Source of the DNA: Escherichia coli
GTDB taxonomy: Bacteria > Pseudomonadota > Gammaproteobacteria > Enterobacterales > Enterobacteriaceae
Direction: 5' to 3' (one strand)
Assembly (NCBI RefSeq): GCF_029227855.1
Contig: NZ_CP074356.1
DNA: 64,000 nucleotides
Shown here: one piece after another, positions 1-55,135 of the stretch
Layout of the letters: each line of letters opens with the position of its first letter
How positions within the stretch are numbered: the stretch's first letter is position 1
Translations under genes and position numbers: made by a program
The notes under the pieces: model-generated
The model's input: the letters and a program-made list of their open reading frames with translations, nothing else
Database searches by the model: none
What the model was told of the DNA's origin: nothing

Positions 1-272
1 ATGACGCTCTGACCGCTTTTAATCCACGGATTTTCTTTCCCGGCAATGGGTTTCACCAATAGTTGCAGCTGACTGCTGAATACGCCGCGATGATAGTTTT
101 GATAACTCACTTCCAGGTTGGATTCAGGAGCGGTCAGTTTGAGTTGCGCGTTCGCCTGCGCGACCATGTCTTCGAGATGGGTTTCAATCTTCTTGCCTGT
201 ATACCATGCGCCGCCTGTCCAGACTACGCCTAGCGCAACAATGACGCCTACCGCTACCAGCGATTTATTCAT
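1..272 (-). CDS. ydgA: YdgA-like protein, N-terminal ~90 codons only; gene runs off the window start
   Basis: Minus-strand ATG at 270-272; hand translation MNKSLVAVGVIVALGVVWTGGAWYTGKKIETHLEDMVAQ... with signal-anchor-like N-terminus; position next to manA fits E. coli synteny. Absent from ORF track because no stop lies in the window. Confidence 0.7.
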   Translation of the reverse strand, partial: MNKSLVAVGVIVALGVVWTGGAWYTGKKIETHLEDMVAQANAQLKLTAPESNLEVSYQNYHRGVFSSQLQLLVKPIAGKENPWIKSGQSV

Positions 273-372
273 AATGATTATCCATAAAATGAAATCAGGC
301 GGACTGGCCGCCTGAAGGTGTTATAAGCCTTTAATAAGCTTAGCAAGAGATGTTAATTTTTTCAGTAAGCTC

Positions 373-1548
373 TTACAGCTTGTTGTAAACACGCGCTAAA
401 CGGCCGTGGCCTTTGACAGTCACCGGTGATTCGTTGGCGGCAATAAACGCTGATTCACCCGGTTTAAGCTGTAACTGCTGAGAACCTTTCCACAGCGTTG
501 CATCGCCTTCGACGCAGAACAAAATGGCGGCACTCTGCTGGCTGATGGTGGTTTCTTTATCACTAAGGTCATGCAGCGAGAAGGCAAAATCATCCACAGG
601 AATCGGGAAGTCCAGTTCTGCACCTTGTTTCACCGGCTGGGTCAACAACTGGTTAGCCGGTTTGGCTTCGAACTTCACATTGGCAACCAGTTCCGGAATA
701 TCAATGTATTTAGGCGTCAGACCCGCACGCAGCACGTTATCGGAGTTCGCCATCACTTCCAGCGCCACGCCTTGCAGGTAAGCGTGCGGTGTTTCAGCGA
801 ACAGGAACATCGCTTCGCCAGGATTCAATTTCACCACATTCAGCAACAGCGGGGAGAACAGACCGCTGTCATCCGGGTAAAATTCAGAAATTAAACGAAT
901 TGTTTGCCACGGTTCACCCTGCTGGCTGTCAAGGGCCGATTTTAAAATCGCCAGCGCGCGGGATTTTTCTTCACCCTGCATATTCAACAGGCTGGCGAAC
1001 AGTTCGCTTAAACGTTCGGCATCAGGCTGTTGTAAAAAGTGAGCAATCGCCGGATGTGCACCTGCGACCGGCTGGAGCAGGGAGACAATCTCGGAAAACT
1101 CACGAAACGCGTTCATCGCAAGGAAAGGCGTCAGCGCAAAAACCAGCTCCGGCTTGTGGTTAGGATCTTTATAGTTACGCTCGGCGGCATCCAACGGAAT
1201 ACCTGCGGCATTTTCTTTGGCAAAACCGATTTCAGAATTGCGTTTGTTTGGATGAACCTGAATGGAGAGCGGCTGTGCTGCGCATAATACTTTGAACAGG
1301 AAAGGCAGTTCGCCAAAGCGTTTGGCAACGGCCTCTCCGAGCAGAGTCGATTTATCACTCTCAATCACATCACGCAGTGAAACGATATCTCCGGCGGCAT
1401 TCTGCACTCGTGAACTGCTTTTCGGATGTGCGCCCATCCACAGCTCGGCCATCGGCTGGCTGGACGGATTTTCCATACCATAAAGTTCAGTCAACGCCGT
1501 TTTGCTGCCCCAGGCATAGTTTTGCACTGAGTTAATGAGTTTTTGCAT
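373..1548 (-). CDS. manA: mannose-6-phosphate isomerase (391 aa)
   Basis: ORF 373..1626 (-); protein from internal Met MQKLINSVQNYAWGS... recognised as ManA; ATG at 1546-1548. Confidence 0.95.
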   Translation of the reverse strand: MQKLINSVQNYAWGSKTALTELYGMENPSSQPMAELWMGAHPKSSSRVQNAAGDIVSLRDVIESDKSTLLGEAVAKRFGELPFLFKVLCAAQPLSIQVHPNKRNSEIGFAKENAAGIPLDAAERNYKDPNHKPELVFALTPFLAMNAFREFSEIVSLLQPVAGAHPAIAHFLQQPDAERLSELFASLLNMQGEEKSRALAILKSALDSQQGEPWQTIRLISEFYPDDSGLFSPLLLNVVKLNPGEAMFLFAETPHAYLQGVALEVMANSDNVLRAGLTPKYIDIPELVANVKFEAKPANQLLTQPVKQGAELDFPIPVDDFAFSLHDLSDKETTISQQSAAILFCVEGDATLWKGSQQLQLKPGESAFIAANESPVTVKGHGRLARVYNKL

Positions 1549-1746
1549 GATCAATCCCTGTTTTAATGTGGAAATTAATCCCGCTATTAAAGCAAGAATC
1601 CTACGGGAAGTAACCTGGAGCCGCAAAAAGTCGTACTAGTCTCAGTTTTTGTTAAAAAAGTGTGTAGGATATTGTTACTCGCTTTTAACAGGGCAACGGA
1701 ACACCCGCCCAGAGCATAACCAAACCAGGCAGTAAGTGAGAGAACA

Positions 1747-3393
1747 ATGTCAAACAAACCCTTTCATTATCAGGCACCTTTTCCACTCAAAAAAGATGAT
1801 ACTGAGTATTACCTGCTAACCAGCGAACACGTTAGCGTATCTGAATTTGAAGGGCAGGAGATTTTGAAAGTCGCACCCGAAGCGTTAACTTTGTTGGCGC
1901 GTCAGGCGTTTCATGATGCGTCATTTATGCTGCGTCCGGCTCACCAACAACAGGTGGCCGACATTCTGCGTGACCCGGAAGCCAGCGAAAATGATAAATA
2001 TGTGGCGCTGCAATTCCTGCGCAACTCCGACATCGCCGCAAAAGGCGTTCTGCCAACCTGTCAGGATACCGGCACCGCGATTATTGTTGGTAAAAAAGGG
2101 CAGCGTGTATGGACCGGTGGCGGTGATGAAGTGGCGCTGGCACGCGGTGTCTATAACACTTATATCGAAGATAATCTGCGCTACTCGCAAAACGCGCCGC
2201 TGGATATGTATAAAGAGGTGAATACCGGCACCAATCTACCAGCGCAGATCGATCTTTATGCCGTTGATGGCGACGAGTACAAATTCCTCTGTATCGCCAA
2301 AGGTGGCGGTTCGGCAAACAAGACGTATCTCTATCAGGAAACCAAAGCGTTACTGACGCCGGGGAAACTGAAAAATTACCTGGTTGAGAAGATGCGCACG
2401 CTGGGTACGGCGGCCTGTCCTCCGTATCATATTGCGTTCGTTATTGGTGGAACTTCTGCAGAAACGAACCTTAAAACGGTGAAACTGGCTTCCGCTAAAT
2501 ACTATGATGAACTGCCAACGGAAGGGAATGAGCACGGACAGGCGTTCCGCGATGTGGAACTGGAAAAAGAATTGCTGATCGAAGCGCAAAATCTTGGTCT
2601 GGGTGCGCAGTTTGGCGGTAAATACTTCGCTCACGACATCCGCGTGATTCGCCTGCCACGTCACGGCGCATCCTGCCCGGTCGGTATGGGCGTCTCCTGT
2701 TCTGCTGACCGTAATATCAAAGCAAAGATCAACCGTCAGGGGATTTGGATCGAAAAACTGGAACATAATCCAGGCAAATATATCCCGGAAGAGCTGCGCA
2801 AAGCGGGAGAAGGCGAAGCGGTGCGCGTTGACCTTAACCGTCCGATGAAAGAGATCCTCGCACAGTTGTCGCAGTATCCCGTTTCTACACGCTTATCGCT
2901 GAATGGCACGATTATCGTTGGTCGTGATATTGCTCACGCCAAACTGAAAGAGCGGATGGATAACGGCGAAGGGCTGCCGCAGTATATTAAAGATCATCCG
3001 ATTTACTACGCGGGTCCGGCCAAAACGCCGGAAGGTTATGCCTCCGGTTCTCTTGGCCCAACGACCGCCGGACGGATGGATTCTTATGTCGATCAACTGC
3101 AAGCGCAGGGCGGAAGTATGATCATGCTGGCGAAAGGCAACCGCAGCCAGCAGGTGACGGATGCCTGTAAAAAACACGGCGGTTTCTACCTCGGTAGTAT
3201 CGGTGGTCCGGCAGCTGTATTGGCGCAGGGAAGTATTAAGAGCCTGGAATGTGTTGAATATCCGGAACTGGGAATGGAAGCCATCTGGAAAATTGAAGTG
3301 GAAGATTTCCCGGCATTTATCCTTGTGGATGATAAAGGAAATGACTTCTTCCAGCAGATACAACTCACACAGTGCACCCGCTGTGTGAAATAA
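1747..3393 (+). CDS. fumA: class I fumarate hydratase (Fe-S), 548 aa
   Basis: ORF track 548 aa [18 protein letters not shown]...; full-length FumA. Confidence 0.96.
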
Positions 3394-3398
3394 ACAGA

Positions 3399-3422
3399 GC
3401 CGCCCTTCGGGGCGGTTTTTTT
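3399..3422 (+). terminator. Rho-independent terminator after fumA
   Basis: GC hairpin gccgcccttcggggcgg followed by a T-run immediately after the fumA stop. Confidence 0.6.
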
Positions 3423-3535
3423 ACATGGCACGAAAGACCAAACATTTGTTATCAAATAGTAAATAATAAGTGAGCTAAAAGTTGCTTAACGAAAGCAAAA
3501 CAGAAAGAAAAAATTAATCAGGTGAGGAGCAGGCC

Positions 3536-7243
<3,708 letters not shown>

Positions 7244-37415: not shown

Positions 37416-38696
37416 TTAATTTTTCATTGCTTCGTTATGGGGCATGGTTGGGGCAAACTCGCTTAACTGTGTATTTAACAAAGCTACCTGTGCATTATTG
37501 TTTTCAGACATCCATTTTCCGTATACCTGAAATACCATTTGCGCATCTGCATGGCCCATCTGGTTTGCTATAAATGCCGGGTTAGCACCAGCTGTCAGCG
37601 ACCAGCAGGCATAAGTATGTCTCGACTGATATGATTTTCGATGGCGGAGTCCGGCACGTTTTATCGCTGCGTCCCACATCTGCCTTATTGAGTCAACGGT
37701 AAAATGGTCACCATAATTTTTTACTCTCGCTGACACTTCAGGTTGAAAAACAAAGGTGCATTTTTGTTTTTCTGTTCTGCCATACTCTCTGAGGTGAACA
37801 TCAATGATATGCTCTTTGCTCAGTCTCGTTAATGTCATCTGACTCCGGAGAGCGTCGATTGCTGGCTTAATAAGATGAATGACCCGATTGGTTCCCGCCT
37901 GTGTTTTTGGTACCGTGAAACGGTCTTTTGCTAAATTTCTCCTGATCATCATTGTTCCATTTTTCAGATCTATGTCCTCCCATCCAAGTGCACACAGCTC
38001 ACCAGGGCGAACGCCAGTATAAACAGAAACACACCATAAATTTTTTGCTTGCTGATTTCTGCACGCATCGATAAGACGGATAAATTCCTCCCGCGAAAGA
38101 GGATCCGGAATGGTTCTTGATTCCTTTAATGGCGAGATCCCCTTAAACGGATTATCTGGCAGGTAACCGTTATCAACACCAAACTGGAACACGGCGTTAA
38201 GATTTGTCATGTAATTATTTACAGTTACAGCCGATCTCCCTGGTTGTGTAACAATATAGTTACTTTTGGGGATCTGGTATCCAGTCAGTAGCTCTTTACG
38301 AACCTCCAGTAATTTTTCTTTATTAATCGATGAGGCAAGATTTTTTTCACCGATTATGCTCAGGATATTTTTGATGACGGCACGGTATGTGTTGAGTGAT
38401 GTTTTGGCGACTTCAGTTTCTTTCAGTGCCAGAAATTTTTCAGCCAGTTCTTTTATGGTTAAATCTTGTCGGGCCTCACCAAATTTTTCCAGATTGCGTG
38501 AGGAGGGAAACTGTTTTGCATAGTCGAAAACACCAGTTTTTATTGCGTAACAAACAGAGGCGCGTAGTTCACCTGCAACGCGCCTGTTTTTTGCTGTGTC
38601 AGGAACCCCCAGATTTTCCCTGACTCTTACGCCTTTATAAACAAACCAGATACGTAATTTCCCTCCATGGTTTTCCACGCCTGTCGGATATTTCAT
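37416..38696 (-). CDS. intQ: phage tyrosine integrase (about 426 aa)
   Basis: ORF 37416..38711 (-); preferred start at second ATG 38696 (MKYPTGVENHGGKLRIWF...) preceded by GAGAGG; catalytic region ...HRKSYQSRHTYACW...HADAQMVFQVYGKWM. Confidence 0.88.
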   Translation of the reverse strand: MKYPTGVENHGGKLRIWFVYKGVRVRENLGVPDTAKNRRVAGELRASVCYAIKTGVFDYAKQFPSSRNLEKFGEARQDLTIKELAEKFLALKETEVAKTSLNTYRAVIKNILSIIGEKNLASSINKEKLLEVRKELLTGYQIPKSNYIVTQPGRSAVTVNNYMTNLNAVFQFGVDNGYLPDNPFKGISPLKESRTIPDPLSREEFIRLIDACRNQQAKNLWCVSVYTGVRPGELCALGWEDIDLKNGTMMIRRNLAKDRFTVPKTQAGTNRVIHLIKPAIDALRSQMTLTRLSKEHIIDVHLREYGRTEKQKCTFVFQPEVSARVKNYGDHFTVDSIRQMWDAAIKRAGLRHRKSYQSRHTYACWSLTAGANPAFIANQMGHADAQMVFQVYGKWMSENNNAQVALLNTQLSEFAPTMPHNEAMKN

Positions 38697-42165: not shown

Positions 42166-42223
42166 AAAAACGGCGGCAGAGCAGTCACGGAGTAAAACTG
42201 ATACCGCTAAACGTCACCAGAAA
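42166..42223 (-). ncRNA. dicF: DicF small RNA
   Basis: Reverse complement reads TTTCTGGTGACGTTTAGCGGTATCAGTTTTACTCCGTGACTGCTCTGCCGCCGTTTTT, matching the DicF sequence I recall, including terminator stem and U-tail; lies between the ydfC-like ORF and dicB. Confidence 0.85.
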
Positions 42224-46587: not shown

Positions 46588-47184
46588 ATGGTTGGTGTTA
46601 CTCAAAGGTCAGGGAATTACTCACGTAATGTGCAGGTGGTTGTCGATTCTAACTCTGTTGATATTATAAAGTCTCCATCGATTTTTATGGATCTTGTTGG
46701 TATTTTAGTTGATTCGAATGTTATTGATCCTCGTACAAACAATGACTACGAGCCATATGATATTGAGAATAAAATAGACTTCAATGATGTTATAAAACAT
46801 AGAGAACGTATTGAAGGGTTCTATCTATATTCTTCGATGATAGATAAAGCGTATGAAACATTAAATGAAAGTATGCCTACTGCTAAGGAAACGGCACTGA
46901 AAAGCATCAATTCACGATATCTTGATTGTCAAGGAGATTTATTGCTTAAACATAGAGAAGCGTATAAGAGCTGCAAGGATGCTCAGGAACGGAATAATTT
47001 AAAGATTCAATTGGTAAGAGAGTTTGCAGATTGGATAATAGACAGTGTAATAGAGCACATCATTAAGAAATGCTTAAATTCTCTTATGGCAATGAATTAC
47101 ACAAGCGAAGAAATCGAATGCCATGCTTCTTTTATCGTTTATCATGCATTCGTAGAGTGTAAGATTCTGGAAAAACCAATATGA
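46588..47184 (+). CDS. hypothetical protein (198 aa), second gene of the AT-rich cassette
   Basis: ATG 46588 with GAGG SD; stop overlaps the next start (ATGA); no motif I recognise. Confidence 0.65.
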   Translation: MVGVTQRSGNYSRNVQVVVDSNSVDIIKSPSIFMDLVGILVDSNVIDPRTNNDYEPYDIENKIDFNDVIKHRERIEGFYLYSSMIDKAYETLNESMPTAKETALKSINSRYLDCQGDLLLKHREAYKSCKDAQERNNLKIQLVREFADWIIDSVIEHIIKKCLNSLMAMNYTSEEIECHASFIVYHAFVECKILEKPI

Positions 47185-47417
47185 TTATCTCTGATGTAAC
47201 AAAACCAAGCCAAACCTTGTATTACCTGGGAGCTCGGTTATTAGAATGCATGAGTTCAAATGCTTATTCGTATGTTGATATTATAGACTTGTATAATGAA
47301 TTCAAATCTAAAAATAACAACTCTTCATTCACGCAATATATTTACACTTTAAATTGGCTATATTTATTAGGCCTGGTTGATGCTAACGAAAATGGAGATT
47401 TGATATTATGTTTTTGA
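47181..47417 (+). CDS. hypothetical small protein (78 aa), third gene of the AT-rich cassette
   Basis: ATG 47181 overlapping the upstream stop; 3' end overlaps the ATPase start by 10 nt. Confidence 0.6.
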   Translation: MIISDVTKPSQTLYYLGARLLECMSSNAYSYVDIIDLYNEFKSKNNNSSFTQYIYTLNWLYLLGLVDANENGDLILCF

Positions 47418-49132
47418 AACGGCTAATAGTCAGTTCTTTCAGGCTTGGAGTGATTCGTGATATCGAATTTCACATTGGCGTTAATTTGATTATTGACCGA
47501 AACACCTCCAGCAAAGAGCAAACTGGAAATGGTGTGGGAAAAACTACTGTATTAAGAGCTTTAGATTTTTGTTTTGGAGCAGAACAACTGAATTTTTATA
47601 CCGATCCTGAATTCAAGAAAGAAAATTCGGTTATAAAAAATTATTTGATAGAGAACGAGATTGAGTTTTGTTTAATTCTCACAAAAGATTTGAATAATAA
47701 AACTGCACCAGTAATAAAAATTAAGCGTAAAATTACATCTGAGACTAATAAAACGAAGGTTATAGCCTCAATAAATGAAGAGTCCTATACGAAGGCTAAA
47801 GATTTCAACGAGGCTTTAAAAAGAACATTATATCTTGATTCCGCGATAAAACCGACCATACGAGAGATTATGGGACGTGTTATTCGAAATACGCATGACA
47901 AGATGTCGAACGCATTAAAAACGATAAAAATGGGTTCTAATACACAATATGAAACGTTAAATCTGTTTATGTTTGGGTTCGGTAACTCACAGATTCTGGA
48001 TGAAAAACAGTCAGTGACTAAAGCCTATAAACTGGCGAAATCCGATTATGAAGTAATTACTCGCCATCGCTCAAAGAATGCTTTGGAACAAGCTATTGCA
48101 ATTATAAATAGAGATATTATAGCACAAGAAGAGTTAATTTCTAATTTTCAAGTGGCAGACTCTTATAATGATATGCTTGCTGAGTTAAATGAGTTAAAAA
48201 TTAAAATTAGTGAAGTTTCTATCACACTATCATCTTTGGAGTTTAAGCAAAAATTAAACGATAAGGCTATACTAGATCTGGAAAAAAGTCATGAAAATAT
48301 AAATACACTAGATCTACAGAAGTTGTACTTAGAAGCAACTGATCGGTTAGGTAACTTAAACAAAGAGTTTACTGAGCTACTTTCGTTTCATAATAAAATG
48401 CTTGTAAAAAAAGCTGAGTTTATTAGAAAACAAATGCAGCCAGTGCTGCAAGAAATTTCCAAATATAAAGATGAACTAAATAATTTATTGACTCAAGAAT
48501 CAGAGCTTTTAAAGAGTTTGTCTTCGCATGGGACATTGGCAGACCTGCAAATAATGCAAAAAAAATTAAATTCATTATTTGAAGAAAAAGGTGGGCTTGA
48601 AGCTGGACTACTTCAAATCCAAGAGATGGAGAACAACTTTAATATACTGAAAGCAAAGTTTAATGATGTGTCAGATAGATTAAAATCTAAACTTGACGAT
48701 TTTAACAAACGTCTTGCGCTATTCAATTCCTATTTTTCTTTATATACTAAAAAATTATATCAGGATGAATATATTCTTTCCTATAAAGATTCCTCCGGTT
48801 CTTTCGTTTTTACCATTGAACCTTTAGGAACTTTGCTCACATCAGGTAATCAGGGAGAAGGAAAAAAGAAAGCCCAGGTTGCCTCTTTAGATTTTGCCTA
48901 TTTATCTGTCCAGGAGTCTTTAGAAGCCAGAACACCACGTTTTATAGCTCATGATGGAATTGAGGCAATTCATGTAAATCAAATAAATAAGTTATTCGAG
49001 ATAGCTTCGGGGATTAATGGTCAATATATATTGGCTATTCTTAAAGACAAGTTGGAGAATATTGATCAAGACTTCATCAATAATAGTGTTGTGCTTGAGC
49101 TTGGGGAGGACGATAAGTTTTTTAGGCTTTAA
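47408..49132 (+). CDS. SMC/Rad50/ABC-type coiled-coil ATPase (574 aa), fourth gene of the AT-rich cassette
   Basis: N-terminal P-loop TGNGVGKTTVLRALDFCFG (RecF/SMC-type Walker A); ~300-aa heptad-rich central region; C-terminal TSGNQGEG (signature-like) followed by RFIAHDGIEAIH (Walker-B/D-loop-like); GGAG SD. Confidence 0.8.
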   Translation: MFLKRLIVSSFRLGVIRDIEFHIGVNLIIDRNTSSKEQTGNGVGKTTVLRALDFCFGAEQLNFYTDPEFKKENSVIKNYLIENEIEFCLILTKDLNNKTAPVIKIKRKITSETNKTKVIASINEESYTKAKDFNEALKRTLYLDSAIKPTIREIMGRVIRNTHDKMSNALKTIKMGSNTQYETLNLFMFGFGNSQILDEKQSVTKAYKLAKSDYEVITRHRSKNALEQAIAIINRDIIAQEELISNFQVADSYNDMLAELNELKIKISEVSITLSSLEFKQKLNDKAILDLEKSHENINTLDLQKLYLEATDRLGNLNKEFTELLSFHNKMLVKKAEFIRKQMQPVLQEISKYKDELNNLLTQESELLKSLSSHGTLADLQIMQKKLNSLFEEKGGLEAGLLQIQEMENNFNILKAKFNDVSDRLKSKLDDFNKRLALFNSYFSLYTKKLYQDEYILSYKDSSGSFVFTIEPLGTLLTSGNQGEGKKKAQVASLDFAYLSVQESLEARTPRFIAHDGIEAIHVNQINKLFEIASGINGQYILAILKDKLENIDQDFINNSVVLELGEDDKFFRL

Positions 49133-49366: not shown

Positions 49367-49577
49367 TTTCATATTGGCGAGATAACGGGAGTTAAGTAGA
49401 ATGCCTGCGGGTGCTTGAGGCTATCTGCCTCGGGCATGAACACCAACGGCAGATAGAGAAAAGCCCCAGTTAACATTACGCGTCCTGCAAGACGCTTAAC
49501 ATTAATCTGAGGCCAATTTCATGCTAGACACATGTAGGTTAGCCTCTTACGTGCCGAAAGGCAAGGAGAAGCAGGCT

Positions 49578-49733
49578 ATGAAGCAGCAAAAGGCGATGTT
49601 AATCGCCCTGATCGTCATCTGTTTAACCGTCATAGTGACGGCACTGGTAACGAGGAAAGACCTCTGCGAGGTACGAATCCGAACCGGCCAGACGGAGGTC
49701 GCTGTCTTCACAGCTTACGAACCTGAGGAGTAA
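49578..49733 (+). CDS. hokD: Hok/Gef-family membrane toxin HokD (51 aa)
   Basis: ATG 49578 preceded by AAGGAGAAG; MKQQKAMLIALIVICLTVIVTALVTRKDLCEVRIRTGQTEVAVFTAYEPEE; ORF track shows an in-frame upstream extension from 49521. Confidence 0.86.
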   Translation: MKQQKAMLIALIVICLTVIVTALVTRKDLCEVRIRTGQTEVAVFTAYEPEE

Positions 49734-51614: not shown

Positions 51615-51992
51615 ATGCGTGATATTCAGATGGTTCTTGAGCGTTGGGGGGCATGGGCGGCTAATAATCATGAAGATGTGACCTGGTCGTCCATTGCCGC
51701 TGGTTTTAAGGGATTAATTCCTTCAAAAGTAAGATCTCGTCCGCAATGCTGTGACGATGACGCGATGATCATTTGTGAATGTATGGCTCGCCTGAGAAAA
51801 AACAACAGCGATTTACATGGTTTATTGGTGGACTATTATGTCGGCGGCATGACTTTTATGGCGCTTGCACGTAAGCATGGGCGATCTGATTGTTGGGTTG
51901 GCAGGATGCTCCAGAAAGCTGAGGGCGTAGTGGAGGGCATGCTGATGGTATTGGATCTCCGATTGGAGATGGATGCTGATTGTTCGAAATAA
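51615..51992 (+). CDS. late-gene antiterminator Q (QuuD-type), about 126 aa
   Basis: ORF 51600..51992 (TTG); ATG at 51615 after GGAG; [34 protein letters not shown]... recognised as the short Q family of DLP12 QuuD. Confidence 0.85.
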
Positions 51993-51999
51993 TTAAAGG

Positions 52000-52060
52000 A
52001 AAAGTTGCTGTCTGATTGTCATTAGTCTAACATTTTAAATGTTGGAATCGCAACGTAGTT
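52000..52060 (+). promoter_or_regulatory. putative late promoter / qut region (pR'-like), not precisely mapped
   Basis: AT-rich segment with TTGTCA and TAAATG/TATCAT candidate hexamers between the Q stop and a strong terminator. Confidence 0.3.
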
Positions 52061-52081: not shown

Positions 52082-52109
52082 TCCTGATTTAGCCAGCCTC
52101 CCCAAAGGC
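52082..52109 (+). terminator. Rho-independent terminator (tR'-like) downstream of Q
   Basis: ccagcc-tccccaaa-ggctgg hairpin followed by TTTTTTT. Confidence 0.65.
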
Positions 52110-52147
52110 TGGTTTTTTTCTAATAAGTATCATTTCGGGTAGGGATT

Positions 52148-52672
52148 TTATTGTTTAACCCATAATAATTCATTGACATTGAATCCCAACTTTTGAGCGG
52201 TTCGCACATAGTCTGCTTTTACTTTATCTGGAATAGTTGGGGTCCTTGCCAGAATCCATAGGTATTCTCTGTTCGAACCACTAACAAGAGCATACTTATA
52301 CTCATCATCCAGTTTGATTACATTATAGCCACCATAGAAGGGGCCAAAAAACGAAACCTTCAACGCTGCAGTTTTAGTATCTCCAGTAAAGTATGCTTTA
52401 CCTTCGCTCTCGCTCCATTTATTTTTCGTTGGATCGTATCCACGGTTAAGTACACGAATCCCTCCGTCGTTCCGTTTTCCATAAGTAGCGCTGACCTGTT
52501 CCAGACCACGTTCGAACCGGTTCTCGAGGCGAGCTATTTCATACCATTTTCCGAGGTAGCGGTTGGCGTCAAAATTTGTAATCGGCTGCACACCTTTAGG
52601 TGGTGTCGGGGCCTTACATGCTATAAGAGTGAAAGAGAGTGCAATGCCAGTCAACACAGGCCATAACTTCAT
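52148..52672 (-). CDS. outer-membrane lipocalin Blc homologue (about 174 aa), prophage cargo
   Basis: ORF 52148..52678 (-); ATG at 52670-52672 with AGGA SD; lipobox LIAC; lipocalin motifs NFDANRYLGKWYEIARL, YNVIKLDDEYKYALVSG; AT-rich. Confidence 0.85.
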   Translation of the reverse strand: MKLWPVLTGIALSFTLIACKAPTPPKGVQPITNFDANRYLGKWYEIARLENRFERGLEQVSATYGKRNDGGIRVLNRGYDPTKNKWSESEGKAYFTGDTKTAALKVSFFGPFYGGYNVIKLDDEYKYALVSGSNREYLWILARTPTIPDKVKADYVRTAQKLGFNVNELLWVKQ

Positions 52673-52864
52673 AATCAATCCTGTACTTTTGATAGTTGAG
52701 AGTAAGTATGAAAGATAGATGATTACGACCGATCACTTAAAGAACTTTCATACTATATTAGGAATAGTCCATAACAGAAAAATTGTCAGTGATGACGTCA
52801 GAAAGGCAATTTATTCCGTGCACTACACAGTTTATGTGTTAATGAATTAGTCAAGGGGGAGGAT

Positions 52865-53824
52865 ATGATAAAAAAACCTGTGATTGGAATCAGCGGTTGT
52901 TTGGCCGGTTCTGCTGTTCGTTTTGATGGTGGTCACAAAAGAGCTGACTTTTTAATGGACAAATTAGTGGAATGGGTAACATTCAGACCAGTATGTCCGG
53001 AAATGGCTATAGGGCTGCCAGTTCCGCGTCCTGCTCTACGTCTTGTGCGCTCGAAGCAAGGAAATATACGGATGTGTTTCAGCCACGACCAGAATGAGGA
53101 TGTGACAGAGAGAATGACAGAGTTTAGTCGTTCTTATATGCACAAATTAAAGGATGTATCGGGGTTTGTGGTTTGTGCTAAATCTCCCAGCTGTGGCATG
53201 GAGCGCGTGCGTGTCTATGATGAAAATGGTAATCGAGGTCGTAAAGATGGAGTGGGACTATTTACGAGCACTTTGATGGAAAAGTTTTCCTGGCTACCGG
53301 TTGAAGAGGATGGGCGATTACATGATCCAGTGCTTCGTGAGAATTTTGTTGAAAGAGTTTTTGCTTTGCATGAGCTCAATCACCTTTACAAGGAGAAATT
53401 ATCAAGAAGAGAGTTATTAGCTTTTCATAGTCGTTATAAGCTTCAGTTGTTGGCGCATAGTCAGGCAGGCTATAAAGATATGGGACCATTTGTGGCTGCA
53501 ATACACGAGTGGGCGGACCTTGAATCATACTTTGAGGTGTATCGTGATAAGCTGATGGCGATTCTCAGAAAACCTGCATCACGTAAAAATCACACGAATG
53601 TGCTGATGCATATACAGGGGTATTTTAGTAATTACTTAAGTACACGCCAGCGTAAAGAGTTGACCGAGGTTATACTTAACTATCGCTTTGGCACATTGCC
53701 TCTTCTTGCGCCGTTGACTCTGCTGAAGCATTATCTGGGTGAGTATCCTAATGATTACTTGCTTACACAGAATTACTTCGATCCCTATCCGGAAGAACTG
53801 GCTCTAAGACTGATGGTGAATTAA
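52865..53824 (+). CDS. two-domain DUF523 (TudS-like Fe-S thio-nucleobase desulfidase) plus DUF1722 protein, RudS-like (319 aa)
   Basis: ORF track 319 aa; GGGGGAGG SD; N-terminal GISGCLAGSAVRFDGGHK with further Cys at FRPVCPEM and VVCAKSPSCGM (three-Cys Fe-S pattern); C-terminal half YbgA-like. Confidence 0.75.
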   Translation: MIKKPVIGISGCLAGSAVRFDGGHKRADFLMDKLVEWVTFRPVCPEMAIGLPVPRPALRLVRSKQGNIRMCFSHDQNEDVTERMTEFSRSYMHKLKDVSGFVVCAKSPSCGMERVRVYDENGNRGRKDGVGLFTSTLMEKFSWLPVEEDGRLHDPVLRENFVERVFALHELNHLYKEKLSRRELLAFHSRYKLQLLAHSQAGYKDMGPFVAAIHEWADLESYFEVYRDKLMAILRKPASRKNHTNVLMHIQGYFSNYLSTRQRKELTEVILNYRFGTLPLLAPLTLLKHYLGEYPNDYLLTQNYFDPYPEELALRLMVN

Positions 53825-54230
53825 CTGTATGCGATATCATCTGAAAGTGATGAGTTCCTGTATGCAGGATATTTACAATCGTAAAAACTACACTATGATA
53901 CCCATAGTGTCAGTTTGTATAAAAATCCTGTTCACGCTGAAGAAAACATTGAGATGCAATTTAATGTTGGTAAACATACCAGCCCCAAAAGATTTTATTC
54001 AATCTGTTTTTATATGAAGATATTTCAAGTGAATATTAAGAGTATATAATATTATTATTGCACGCAGCTATTATAATATAACAGATTAGTTTAATGATTT
54101 GTTTTTTGTGAGTTAAACACATGGTTTTATAGTTGTGATGCAATGAGATTTTCCTTATTGTTGAACTGGCGAATATTGATTTTCCACCTATACTTACCTG
54201 GTGTAACCCCAGTGATATCAGGTGGATAAT

Positions 54231-54944
54231 ATGCCATACATATGTTCTGTCATTTTGGTGTTGAACTCGTTTGGTGTCCGAATTGGTAAAGAAGATATTT
54301 TGTTTAAAAAAGGAAGTGCTGTCCTCATCGAATACAATTTAAAAGATCTTTTTTCGTCAAATACAGATCATCTAATGATCGTAGATGTTGAGGAGAAAAC
54401 AGTTAATGATTTCTTTAAAAACTACACACTCTCACCTTTTTCTGTAAGAAGGTTTTATCCGGCATACTTGATAGTAGAATGTGAAGGTTTTTCTTTGTTA
54501 AAGAACTTGGTTGCATGCTTGAATTGTGATAGCAAAACCGTGGATGTGGTTAGAAATCAAATATCACTTGCATGTCTTGCTGTCTTATCTTCAGAGAAAA
54601 TAGTGCAAAGTTTTTTGTTCGGAAGTCTTAATAGCTTAGGTTGTAAAGTTAAGGCTATTATTCACTCGGATATCTCAGCGTCATGGAGACTTTGTGATAT
54701 ATCTTCAAGATTATATATGAGCGAGAGTTTGTTAAAAAGAAAATTAAAAGACGAAGGGGTATCGTTTAGTAGATTAATTCTTGAAGAACGAATGATGATG
54801 GCGCAAAGATTATTAATTTACAGTAACCATACTGTCGGCAAGGTGGCGGGAATATGCGGGTATGACAATGCATCATATTTTGTAAGTGTTTTTAGAAGAT
54901 ATTTTGGTGTGCCTCCGCACCAATATTTATCAAGATTTTCTTAG
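54231..54944 (+). CDS. AraC/XylS-family transcriptional regulator (about 237 aa), prophage cargo
   Basis: ORF 54222..54944 (GTG); ATG at 54231; C-terminal HTH ...HTVGKVAGICGYDNASYFVSVFRRYFGVPPHQY; AT-rich with long AT-rich upstream region. Confidence 0.85.
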   Translation: MPYICSVILVLNSFGVRIGKEDILFKKGSAVLIEYNLKDLFSSNTDHLMIVDVEEKTVNDFFKNYTLSPFSVRRFYPAYLIVECEGFSLLKNLVACLNCDSKTVDVVRNQISLACLAVLSSEKIVQSFLFGSLNSLGCKVKAIIHSDISASWRLCDISSRLYMSESLLKRKLKDEGVSFSRLILEERMMMAQRLLIYSNHTVGKVAGICGYDNASYFVSVFRRYFGVPPHQYLSRFS

Positions 54945-55135
54945 AAGATATGATGTGATGGCATTTTATAAAGTTGTTTTTTTGAAGTGTAAGATTATAC
55001 GATATTTTTAGCTACGCCAGAATAATTGCTGGCGTTTTTCTTTTTGAATAGATGTTCGGGCCTTACGCTAATGTAATTTTTTTCCTTCTTCGAACCAAAC
55101 CGTGTACACCATCCGTTATCTGCGGAGGTGAGGCT

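Follow-up and report, generated by a model that had tools for sequence, protein, structure and literature searches.

The 64,000-nt stretch of DNA analysed here (contig NZ_CP074356.1 of assembly GCF_029227855.1; henceforth the window) is Escherichia coli chromosome and contains a lambdoid prophage with a gene of 319 codons, which is annotated in RefSeq, in an E. coli chromosome with 100% identity to this part of the window, as encoding a 'YbgA family protein' (WP_001587086.1). This raises the question of which reaction the protein catalyses and of what use it may be to a temperate phage. On the basis of domain architecture, active-site residues and predicted fold, the gene is very probably a prophage allele of rudS, whose product would act as an 'eraser' of 4-thiouridine (s4U) in tRNA; this high confidence applies to the identity of the enzyme and to its chemistry. 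Published work already covers this class of enzymes and its occurrence in phages, and the window gene is of a known kind and in itself no discovery. What reaches beyond the published picture is its prevalence in E. coli, its location in an stx-type slot of the phage genome and its apparently twofold, independent acquisition by phages.

Domain architecture, active-site residues and predicted fold

The N-terminal part of the window protein matches the TudS/DUF523 profile over the whole model length and the C-terminal part the DUF1722 profile, and chance is no explanation for either match (Table 1). Both domains had been called in an earlier note on this DNA and are borne out by this check with profile hidden Markov models. 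Their presence within one 319-residue polypeptide, encoded by a single open reading frame, corresponds to the architecture of the RudS fusion proteins. The three cysteine motifs quoted in the note are all present, namely G8-I-S-G-C12, R41-P-V-C44-P-E46 and C104-A-K-S107-P-S109-C110-G111, and the catalytic residues E46, R55, S107 and S109 are likewise found. The third motif has to be read with some care, as it does contain a conserved ligand in the form of C110, whereas its other cysteine, C104, is not a conserved ligand and is cysteine in only 11 of 68 homologues; C71 is likewise not conserved.

These counts refer to an alignment of 68 diverse full-length relatives with identities down to 35%, taken from a search of 1.84 billion cluster representatives that yielded 4108 proteins with E ≤ 1e-10. 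No sequence of the alignment deviates at E46 or R55, S107 and S109 are serines in 67 and 64 of the 68 sequences, respectively, and the three ligand positions C12, C44 and C110 are occupied by cysteine in 66–67 of them. Every invariant or near-invariant column is retained by the window protein.

An AlphaFold2 model calculated from the same alignment reached a mean predicted local distance difference test score (pLDDT) of 96 and a predicted template modelling score (pTM) of 0.93. The only significant matches of this model to the PDB found by Foldseek were five TudS entries (including 6zw9 and 6z92), with a probability of 1.00 and target-normalised TM-scores of 0.72–0.76, and the predicted N-terminal fold of the window protein is the TudS fold. 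The assignment to TudS made in the note is thus upheld by the top structural matches and also by the sequence of the crystallised TudS (6Z92), which is matched by the window protein with an E-value of 1.5e-4 in phmmer. The DUF1722 half is all-helical in the model and has no solved relative among the PDB matches of Foldseek. All features of RudS membership that are accessible to sequence and structure tools, i.e. both domains, the cysteine ligands, the catalytic residues and the fold, were found in the window protein.

Relation to characterised RudS, TudS and YbgA proteins

The TudS–DUF1722 fusions were named 'RudS' by Jamontas et al. 2024 (Nucleic Acids Research, NAR 52:10543; PMC11417400), and the link between the two-domain form and the removal of s4U from tRNA, which the note had drawn, is correct and refers to this family. 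Six RudS enzymes overexpressed in E. coli, including the viral RudS_vir, decreased the s4U content of tRNA 4.7- to 26-fold as determined by liquid chromatography coupled to tandem mass spectrometry (LC-MS/MS), with an 18.3-fold decrease for RudS_ST; neither TudS alone nor E. coli YbgA alone affected tRNA s4U (PMC11417400). The activity was abolished by Cys-to-Ala mutations or by mutations of E51, S111, S113 or R60 in the numbering of RudS_KT, the DUF1722 domain of which binds the anticodon arm of tRNA in the authors' model (PMC11417400). Overexpressed RudS_KT, and this was shown for RudS_KT only, furthermore reduced the growth delay caused by ultraviolet A (UVA) light (PMC11417400). As the main substrate of RudS is s4U in tRNA and not free thiouracil (PMC11417400), the term 'thio-nucleobase desulfidase' used in the note is slightly inaccurate.

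RudS_vir is gp66 (H3V29_gp66) of Escherichia phage 1H12 (NC_049947), consists of 319 residues like the window protein and is 92.5% identical to it. The 24 differences are conservative or surface-type substitutions, none of which affects a ligand or catalytic position, and Cys12, Cys44 and Cys110 carry the same numbers in both proteins. At the nucleotide level, the two alleles are 91.8% identical, with 0.29 synonymous (dS) and 0.038 nonsynonymous (dN) substitutions per site; the resulting dN/dS of 0.13 indicates that purifying selection acts on rudS in the lineage of these phages. By homology to RudS_vir, the window allele itself would be expected to erase s4U and to bind a [4Fe-4S] cluster. 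The gene neighbourhood in 1H12 has the same order as in the window (Q, blc on the minus strand, rudS, an AraC-like gene, holin), but the phages differ in their lysis cassettes and backbones, the window containing essD/ydfR/rrrQ in a Qin-site prophage, and the AraC-like neighbour protein of 1H12 is only 76% identical to that of the window. The homologue from IdasGreatGrand, an isolated phage, shares 98% identity with the window protein.

RudS_ST (STM1389, 'ORF319') from Salmonella enterica LT2 shares the length, the domain fusion and the Cys12/44/110 numbering with the window protein, but it is encoded on the chromosome and a MerR-family regulator has been reported for it. The enterobacterial chromosomal RudS proteins are in general 70–76% identical to the window protein. 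RudS_KT (PP_0741) from Pseudomonas putida KT2440, the mechanistic reference, has the same architecture, but is only distantly related (identities of ~40–45% are seen for members of such kind), and its gene resides in a light-regulated phrB-litR-rudS operon, unlike the window gene. E51, R60, S111, S113 and C17/C49/C114 of RudS_KT correspond to E46, R55, S107, S109 and C12/C44/C110 of the window protein, according to a mapping via the numbering offset and a proxy homologue, which matched 19 of 36 fingerprint positions and was used because the retrieved proteins did not include RudS_KT itself. On the same approximate scale, the tRNA-contacting residues S243/R244 of RudS_KT probably correspond to S239/R240, while the equivalents of N202/N203 are uncertain.

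TudS (PDB 6Z92 and related entries) resembles the window protein in its fold, its three-cysteine [4Fe-4S] site and its catalytic Glu and Ser, with ~27% identity over the common domain. It differs in being a single domain of ~150–166 residues without DUF1722 and in acting on free thiouracil and 4-thiouridine monophosphate (4-thio-UMP). The class of stand-alone TudS proteins was rejected for the window protein in view of its 319 residues and its DUF1722 domain. Conversely, YbgA of E. coli K-12 (b0707) is a stand-alone DUF1722 protein, which is 49% identical to residues 164–315 of the window protein, but has no catalytic domain. An assignment to the YbgA equivalog (NCBIfam NF007549) was also rejected, since the score of 190.4 bits stays below the cutoff of 237 and the match covers residues 160–315 only. 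As an aside, ybgA of K-12 is located directly 3' of the transposase remnants ybfL and ybfD and 5' of phr (locus L011, 1593–3011).

Position of rudS in the prophage

The gene was regarded as prophage-encoded in the earlier note, and its surroundings confirm this. The prophage is inserted next to host rspB, i.e. at the Qin site, and extends beyond the end of the window. After its integrase gene (~37416–38696), which lies beside rspB, come xis, exo, dicB, cI/cro-like genes, Q and the genes for lysis, terminase, portal, capsid and tail. The local order around rudS consists of a DUF968/HNH gene, Q, a terminator, blc on the minus strand, rudS, a hairpin, an AraC-like gene, a second terminator, and the holin, ydfR, lysozyme and spanin genes (Table 1).

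Table 1. Features of rudS, its product and its surroundings in the window
Feature	Position	Strand	Basis and remarks
rudS coding sequence	52865..53824	+	open reading frame list; ATG at 52865, stop codon ends at 53824; 960 nt, 319 aa
Shine-Dalgarno purine-rich stretch AAGGGGGAGG	52853..52862	+	read from the sequence, just 5' of the rudS ATG
TudS/DUF523 catalytic domain, residues 7-149	52883..53311	+	Pfam PF04463 (2-thiour_desulf), E 1.2e-39
Codon of ligand C12	52898-52900	+	residue read from the translation
Codon of ligand C44	52994-52996	+	residue read from the translation
Codon of ligand C110	53192-53194	+	residue read from the translation
DUF1722 domain, residues 192-309	53438..53791	+	Pfam PF08349, E 9.4e-40
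Antiterminator Q, Q21/QuuD family	51615..51992	+	PHROG 79, E 1.5e-49; PDB Q21 6p18, E 4.8e-10; RefSeq
Intrinsic terminator	52091..52121	+	9-bp G+C-rich stem, then seven T; -14.9 kcal/mol, z-score -4.7
blc-like outer-membrane lipocalin gene	52148..52672	-	NCBIfam Blc subfamily, 312 bits vs cutoff 267; divergent from rudS
blc-rudS intergenic region	52679..52864	.	186 bp; putative location of one or more promoters belonging to the module
Stable hairpin with poor U-tract	53890..53910	+	-13.1 kcal/mol, z-score -5.1; 66 nt after the rudS stop
AraC-family regulator gene (YdeO/GadX/HilD-like)	54231..54944	+	NCBIfam and PHROG matches; G+C content ~0.33, AT-rich
Intrinsic terminator between cargo block and holin gene	55014..55041	+	-11.3 kcal/mol, then the run TTTTTCTTTTT

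The genes between Q and the lysis cassette form a cargo block with a G+C content of 0.31–0.45, compared to 0.51–0.56 in the upstream phage genes. The block shows the characteristics of a lambdoid 'moron', as it is positioned 3' of Q and a terminator and 5' of the holin gene, has a terminator of its own and is atypical in composition; a promoter scan demonstrated no promoter belonging to it. The same order of Q, blc, rudS, AraC-like gene and holin gene is found in 1H12, in IdasGreatGrand and in a prophage of Shiga-toxin-producing E. coli (STEC) with a different backbone. In Shiga-toxin phages the slot from Q to the lysis genes is occupied by stx, and the placement of rudS in a slot of this type suggests that it is induced together with lysis. 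A literature search combining RudS and 'prophage' retrieved no paper, and likewise none was found on a blc-ybgA prophage module.

The partner blc accompanies rudS in 12 of 12 phage records carrying rudS, with 97–99% identity; the prophage Blc is ~61–65% identical to Blc proteins of Salmonella and E. coli O157 in the phage collection, which apparently are chromosomal copies. The intergenic region between blc and rudS has 96% column identity across three phages/prophages, a value above the nucleotide identity of the rudS gene given above for the window and 1H12, and the leader following Q is similarly conserved (96–97%), again more than rudS itself. The Shine-Dalgarno stretch of rudS is mostly kept in 1H12 and IdasGreatGrand. 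Rfam and ARAGORN detected nothing in or beside rudS.

The AraC-like gene is more variable than blc, its product being 76–86% identical in the rudS-carrying phages, and phages mEp332 and ev099, which have no rudS, carry relatives with 47% identity. In NCBIfam it comes closest to YdeO, HilD and GadX, all of these matches being far under the cutoffs. AppY, PatE and PsrA/PsrB are prophage-encoded regulators that rewire acid resistance and type III secretion, and the AraC-like neighbour of rudS belongs to the same general kind.

Transcription of the cargo block

In lambdoid phages, the late cassette consists of the Q gene, the promoter pR', a pause element, a terminator and the late genes in this order (bioRxiv 10.1101/651190). 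The strong intrinsic terminator preceding blc is situated ~100 nt 3' of Q, and its hairpin bases are identical in 1H12 and IdasGreatGrand, the 1H12 version having one extra T where the hairpin meets the T-run. Its position fits that of tR', for which it is therefore a candidate; if so, rudS would be placed inside the late transcription unit, like stx in Shiga-toxin phages. The terminator in front of the holin gene points to an additional, separate transcription of the cargo in the lysogen, from which it probably insulates the lysis genes. The hairpin downstream of rudS may serve as a weak terminator or as an RNA-stabilising structure.

An additional observation concerns the leader between Q and its terminator, where the element GTC(T/A) occurs three times at a spacing of 7–8 nt (52011–52029, plus strand; GTCTGATT GTCATTA GTCTAAC). 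In 1H12 this triple repeat is kept in part. Since the binding site of Q21 is a direct repeat with subsites of 8 bp (bioRxiv 10.1101/651190), the repeat in the leader could be a Q-binding element, although this is a visual impression only.

Distribution and origin of rudS

Of 5426 complete E. coli genomes, 1135 (~21%) carry rudS; a genome may have up to three copies, and nearly all copies are chromosomal. In 1063 of these 1135 genomes, 80% or more of the open reading frame is conserved, and 988 of the carriers contain the whole block of blc, rudS, AraC-like gene and holin gene. These counts contradict the published statement that E. coli lacks RudS homologues, which was used to explain its slower recovery from UVA compared to Enterobacter, in a paper that contrasts E. 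coli with Enterobacter and Salmonella over their differing UVA responses (PMC11417400). The UVA growth delay of E. coli and its tRNA s4U level may therefore vary by strain with the prophage content. The s4U assays of the same study were carried out in a host of the BL21(DE3) lineage (PMC11417400). Nico21(DE3), a BL21(DE3) derivative (NZ_CP053600.1; locus L013, 2251–4840), retains Q, blc and a rudS remnant, which is cut after 147 nt by the insertion sequence IS3, the downstream phage genes being lost; the assay host thus belongs to a lineage with a decayed rudS.

Chromosomal homologues from Citrobacter and Klebsiella are 73–76% identical to the window protein, and their gene is the last one of a conserved nine-gene operon (loci L004–L009, Citrobacter braakii and Klebsiella, 110–6960). 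The operon encodes SnoaL_2, SDR, FAD amine oxidase, DUF1365, cyclopropane-fatty-acid-synthase-like (CMAS) and DUF2878 proteins, a protein without Pfam match, a DUF3833 protein and RudS; it resembles a photo-oxidative stress set and differs from the context of the phage gene. A joint capture of blc and rudS from such a chromosomal operon was considered and, as far as the sequences go, rejected, as BLASTP comparisons of Blc with the DUF3833 protein and the 175-residue protein without Pfam match gave E-values above 1. Within the enterobacterial RudS proteins the E. coli phage clade is an outlier, with 70–76% identity to the chromosomal proteins, which share 82–92% among themselves, and the G+C content of its genes is 0.43 compared to 0.55–0.60 for the chromosomal ones.

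The viral contigs of IMG/VR, scanned with the window protein as the single query because the diverse alignment has no conserved stretch of 7–10 columns, contain 42 rudS loci, six of which form a class with 73% identity (L048–L053, on contigs of 38–44 kb). In L048, the one contig of the six in which the placement was read, rudS (4001–4960) lies within the nin region, preceded by CII-like, replication and helicase-loader genes and followed by dinI, rusA, a ninG-like gene and Q; its product shares 98% identity with Salmonella and Citrobacter proteins. This second lineage, associated with Salmonella/Citrobacter-type prophages, appears to have gained rudS independently, in another slot and next to an SOS modulator. 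Temperate enterobacterial phages would therefore have acquired rudS at least twice, and two independent acquisitions by lambdoid lineages argue that the gene is useful to them.

Proposed function and competing explanations

Combining the homology-based data, we propose the following scenario. In the TudS domain, C12, C44 and C110 would coordinate a [4Fe-4S] cluster, leaving its fourth iron free to bind the sulfur of the 4-thiouridine located at position 8 (or 9) of the tRNA. E46, positioned by R55, S107 and S109, would then activate a water molecule, whereby the sulfur is removed and uridine is left behind. The DUF1722 domain is expected to dock to the anticodon arm and to direct the enzyme to tRNA instead of the free base. 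As phage cargo carried together with blc and an AraC-type regulator between Q with its terminator and the lysis cassette, rudS would probably be expressed at a low level from its own promoter in the lysogen and, after induction, would probably be swept into the Q-dependent late transcript. The lowered s4U content of host tRNA would blunt near-ultraviolet (near-UV) cross-linking of tRNA, the stringent response and the ensuing growth delay, and the outcome might be a greater tolerance of the lysogen to sunlight, continued translation while UV-triggered lytic growth proceeds, or both. The suggestion of the note that host tRNA modification or UV sensing could be modulated by a prophage copy appears reasonable. 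We place, however, much less confidence in the mode of expression and in the benefit to phage or host than in the identity of the enzyme.

Several observations speak against this scenario or parts of it. The photolyase and MerR/LitR genes of a light-responsive context are absent among the neighbours of rudS in the prophage, such an operon location being a typical but not a defining feature of RudS. The published decreases of s4U were obtained by overexpression from plasmids, as opposed to a single-copy prophage gene (PMC11417400). In addition, RudS_vir is the weaker tRNA desulfidase in relation to its protein level, the amount of soluble protein being high, and its lag on 4-thiouracil in a uracil auxotroph is the shortest among the RudS enzymes (PMC11417400); because of both properties the substrate balance of RudS_vir may be shifted. 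With respect to transcription, no convincing sigma-70 promoter was detected 5' of rudS, where promoter-like sites are as frequent as in shuffled sequence and the scan of the blc–rudS intergenic region yielded only a 9-of-12 match (52696–52723). Neither the promoter scan nor an alignment of the Q gene and leader with quuD of the K-12 prophage DLP12 placed pR'; the two genes are alike over approximately the first 250 nt and the leaders diverge, while the preprint on the Q21 structure provides the logic of the cassette but no sequence to match (bioRxiv 10.1101/651190). Finally, a second promoter-like site, with terminator, is present just 5' of the holin gene (54927–55041), and for this reason the assignment of rudS to the late operon is not secure, as the late promoter could be 3' of rudS.

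The behaviour of RudS_vir can also be taken to mean that the window enzyme is mainly a TudS-like desulfidase for salvage or detoxification, with free 4-thiouracil, 4-thiouridine and 4-thio-UMP, e.g. from tRNA turnover, as substrates and with tRNA as a side substrate. The short lag on 4-thiouracil, the lower tRNA desulfidation in spite of abundant soluble protein (PMC11417400) and the TudS fold of the catalytic domain would agree with such a role. Yet none of the RudS enzymes allowed growth on thiouracil in the manner of TudS, RudS_vir being no exception, and RudS_vir still lowered tRNA s4U (PMC11417400). Moreover, the tRNA-docking DUF1722 domain is retained under purifying selection (overall dN/dS 0.13), and the substitutions between the two alleles are evenly spread, with 10 in residues 1–150 and 14 in residues 151–319. 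We therefore consider a predominant salvage function to be improbable, and erasure of s4U in tRNA remains the preferred assignment.

Even more improbable, in our view, are two explanations that concern the reason for carrying the gene. A silent or decaying passenger, which merely hitch-hikes with the Q–lysis region, would account for the fact that no promoter stands out, for the interruption by IS3 in the BL21(DE3) derivative and for the 72 of 1135 genomes that hold less than 80% of the gene; but a dN/dS of 0.13 at a dS of 0.29, the preservation of all family-invariant residues, a nearly full-length reading frame in ~94% of the carriers, the occurrence in phages that form infectious particles and the independent presence in a different slot of a second phage lineage are at variance with decay, for which we see hardly any chance. 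We rate as equally remote a role of RudS in conflicts between phages or between phage and host, i.e. evasion or triggering of a tRNA-directed defence or superinfection exclusion in place of light tolerance. Genes for conversion and exclusion (lambdoid 'morons') are often located in the slot from Q to the lysis genes, and an ABC three-component system with a PDC-M68B match is present in the same prophage as a candidate defence cluster. Against this, PADLOC gave no defence-model match for blc, rudS or the AraC-like protein, no defence system that depends on s4U is known to us, and the chromosomal rudS genes are located in light or oxidative-stress operons.

Returning to s4U erasure in tRNA as the reaction of the enzyme, a more far-reaching, speculative version of the scenario is conceivable, to which we assign a low probability, albeit a somewhat higher one than to the alternatives discussed above. 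In this version, the location of rudS in the late unit would couple the UV induction of the prophage to the erasure of the near-UV sensor in tRNA. Cross-links between s4U8 and C13, uncharged tRNA and guanosine tetraphosphate (ppGpp), which would otherwise throttle late protein synthesis and burst size, would thereby be prevented. The location of rudS beside dinI in the second lineage and the long purifying selection in the E. coli phage clade are consistent with such a coupling, but prove nothing. If it were true, rudS would be a phage fitness gene that rewires a stress checkpoint of the host and not merely a case of lysogenic conversion.

Other features of the prophage

The early region of the prophage contains an AT-rich cluster of three genes (46588–49132, plus strand), annotated in RefSeq as an ABC three-component system, the 574-residue protein of which matches the PADLOC candidate defence family PDC-M68B with an E-value of 1.3e-41. 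Two RNAs were recognised by Rfam, the small RNA DicF near dicB (42171–42222, minus strand; 64.8 bits) and the antitoxin RNA sok just 5' of hokD (49409–49583, plus strand; 115 bits), both of which are standard features of Qin-type prophages.

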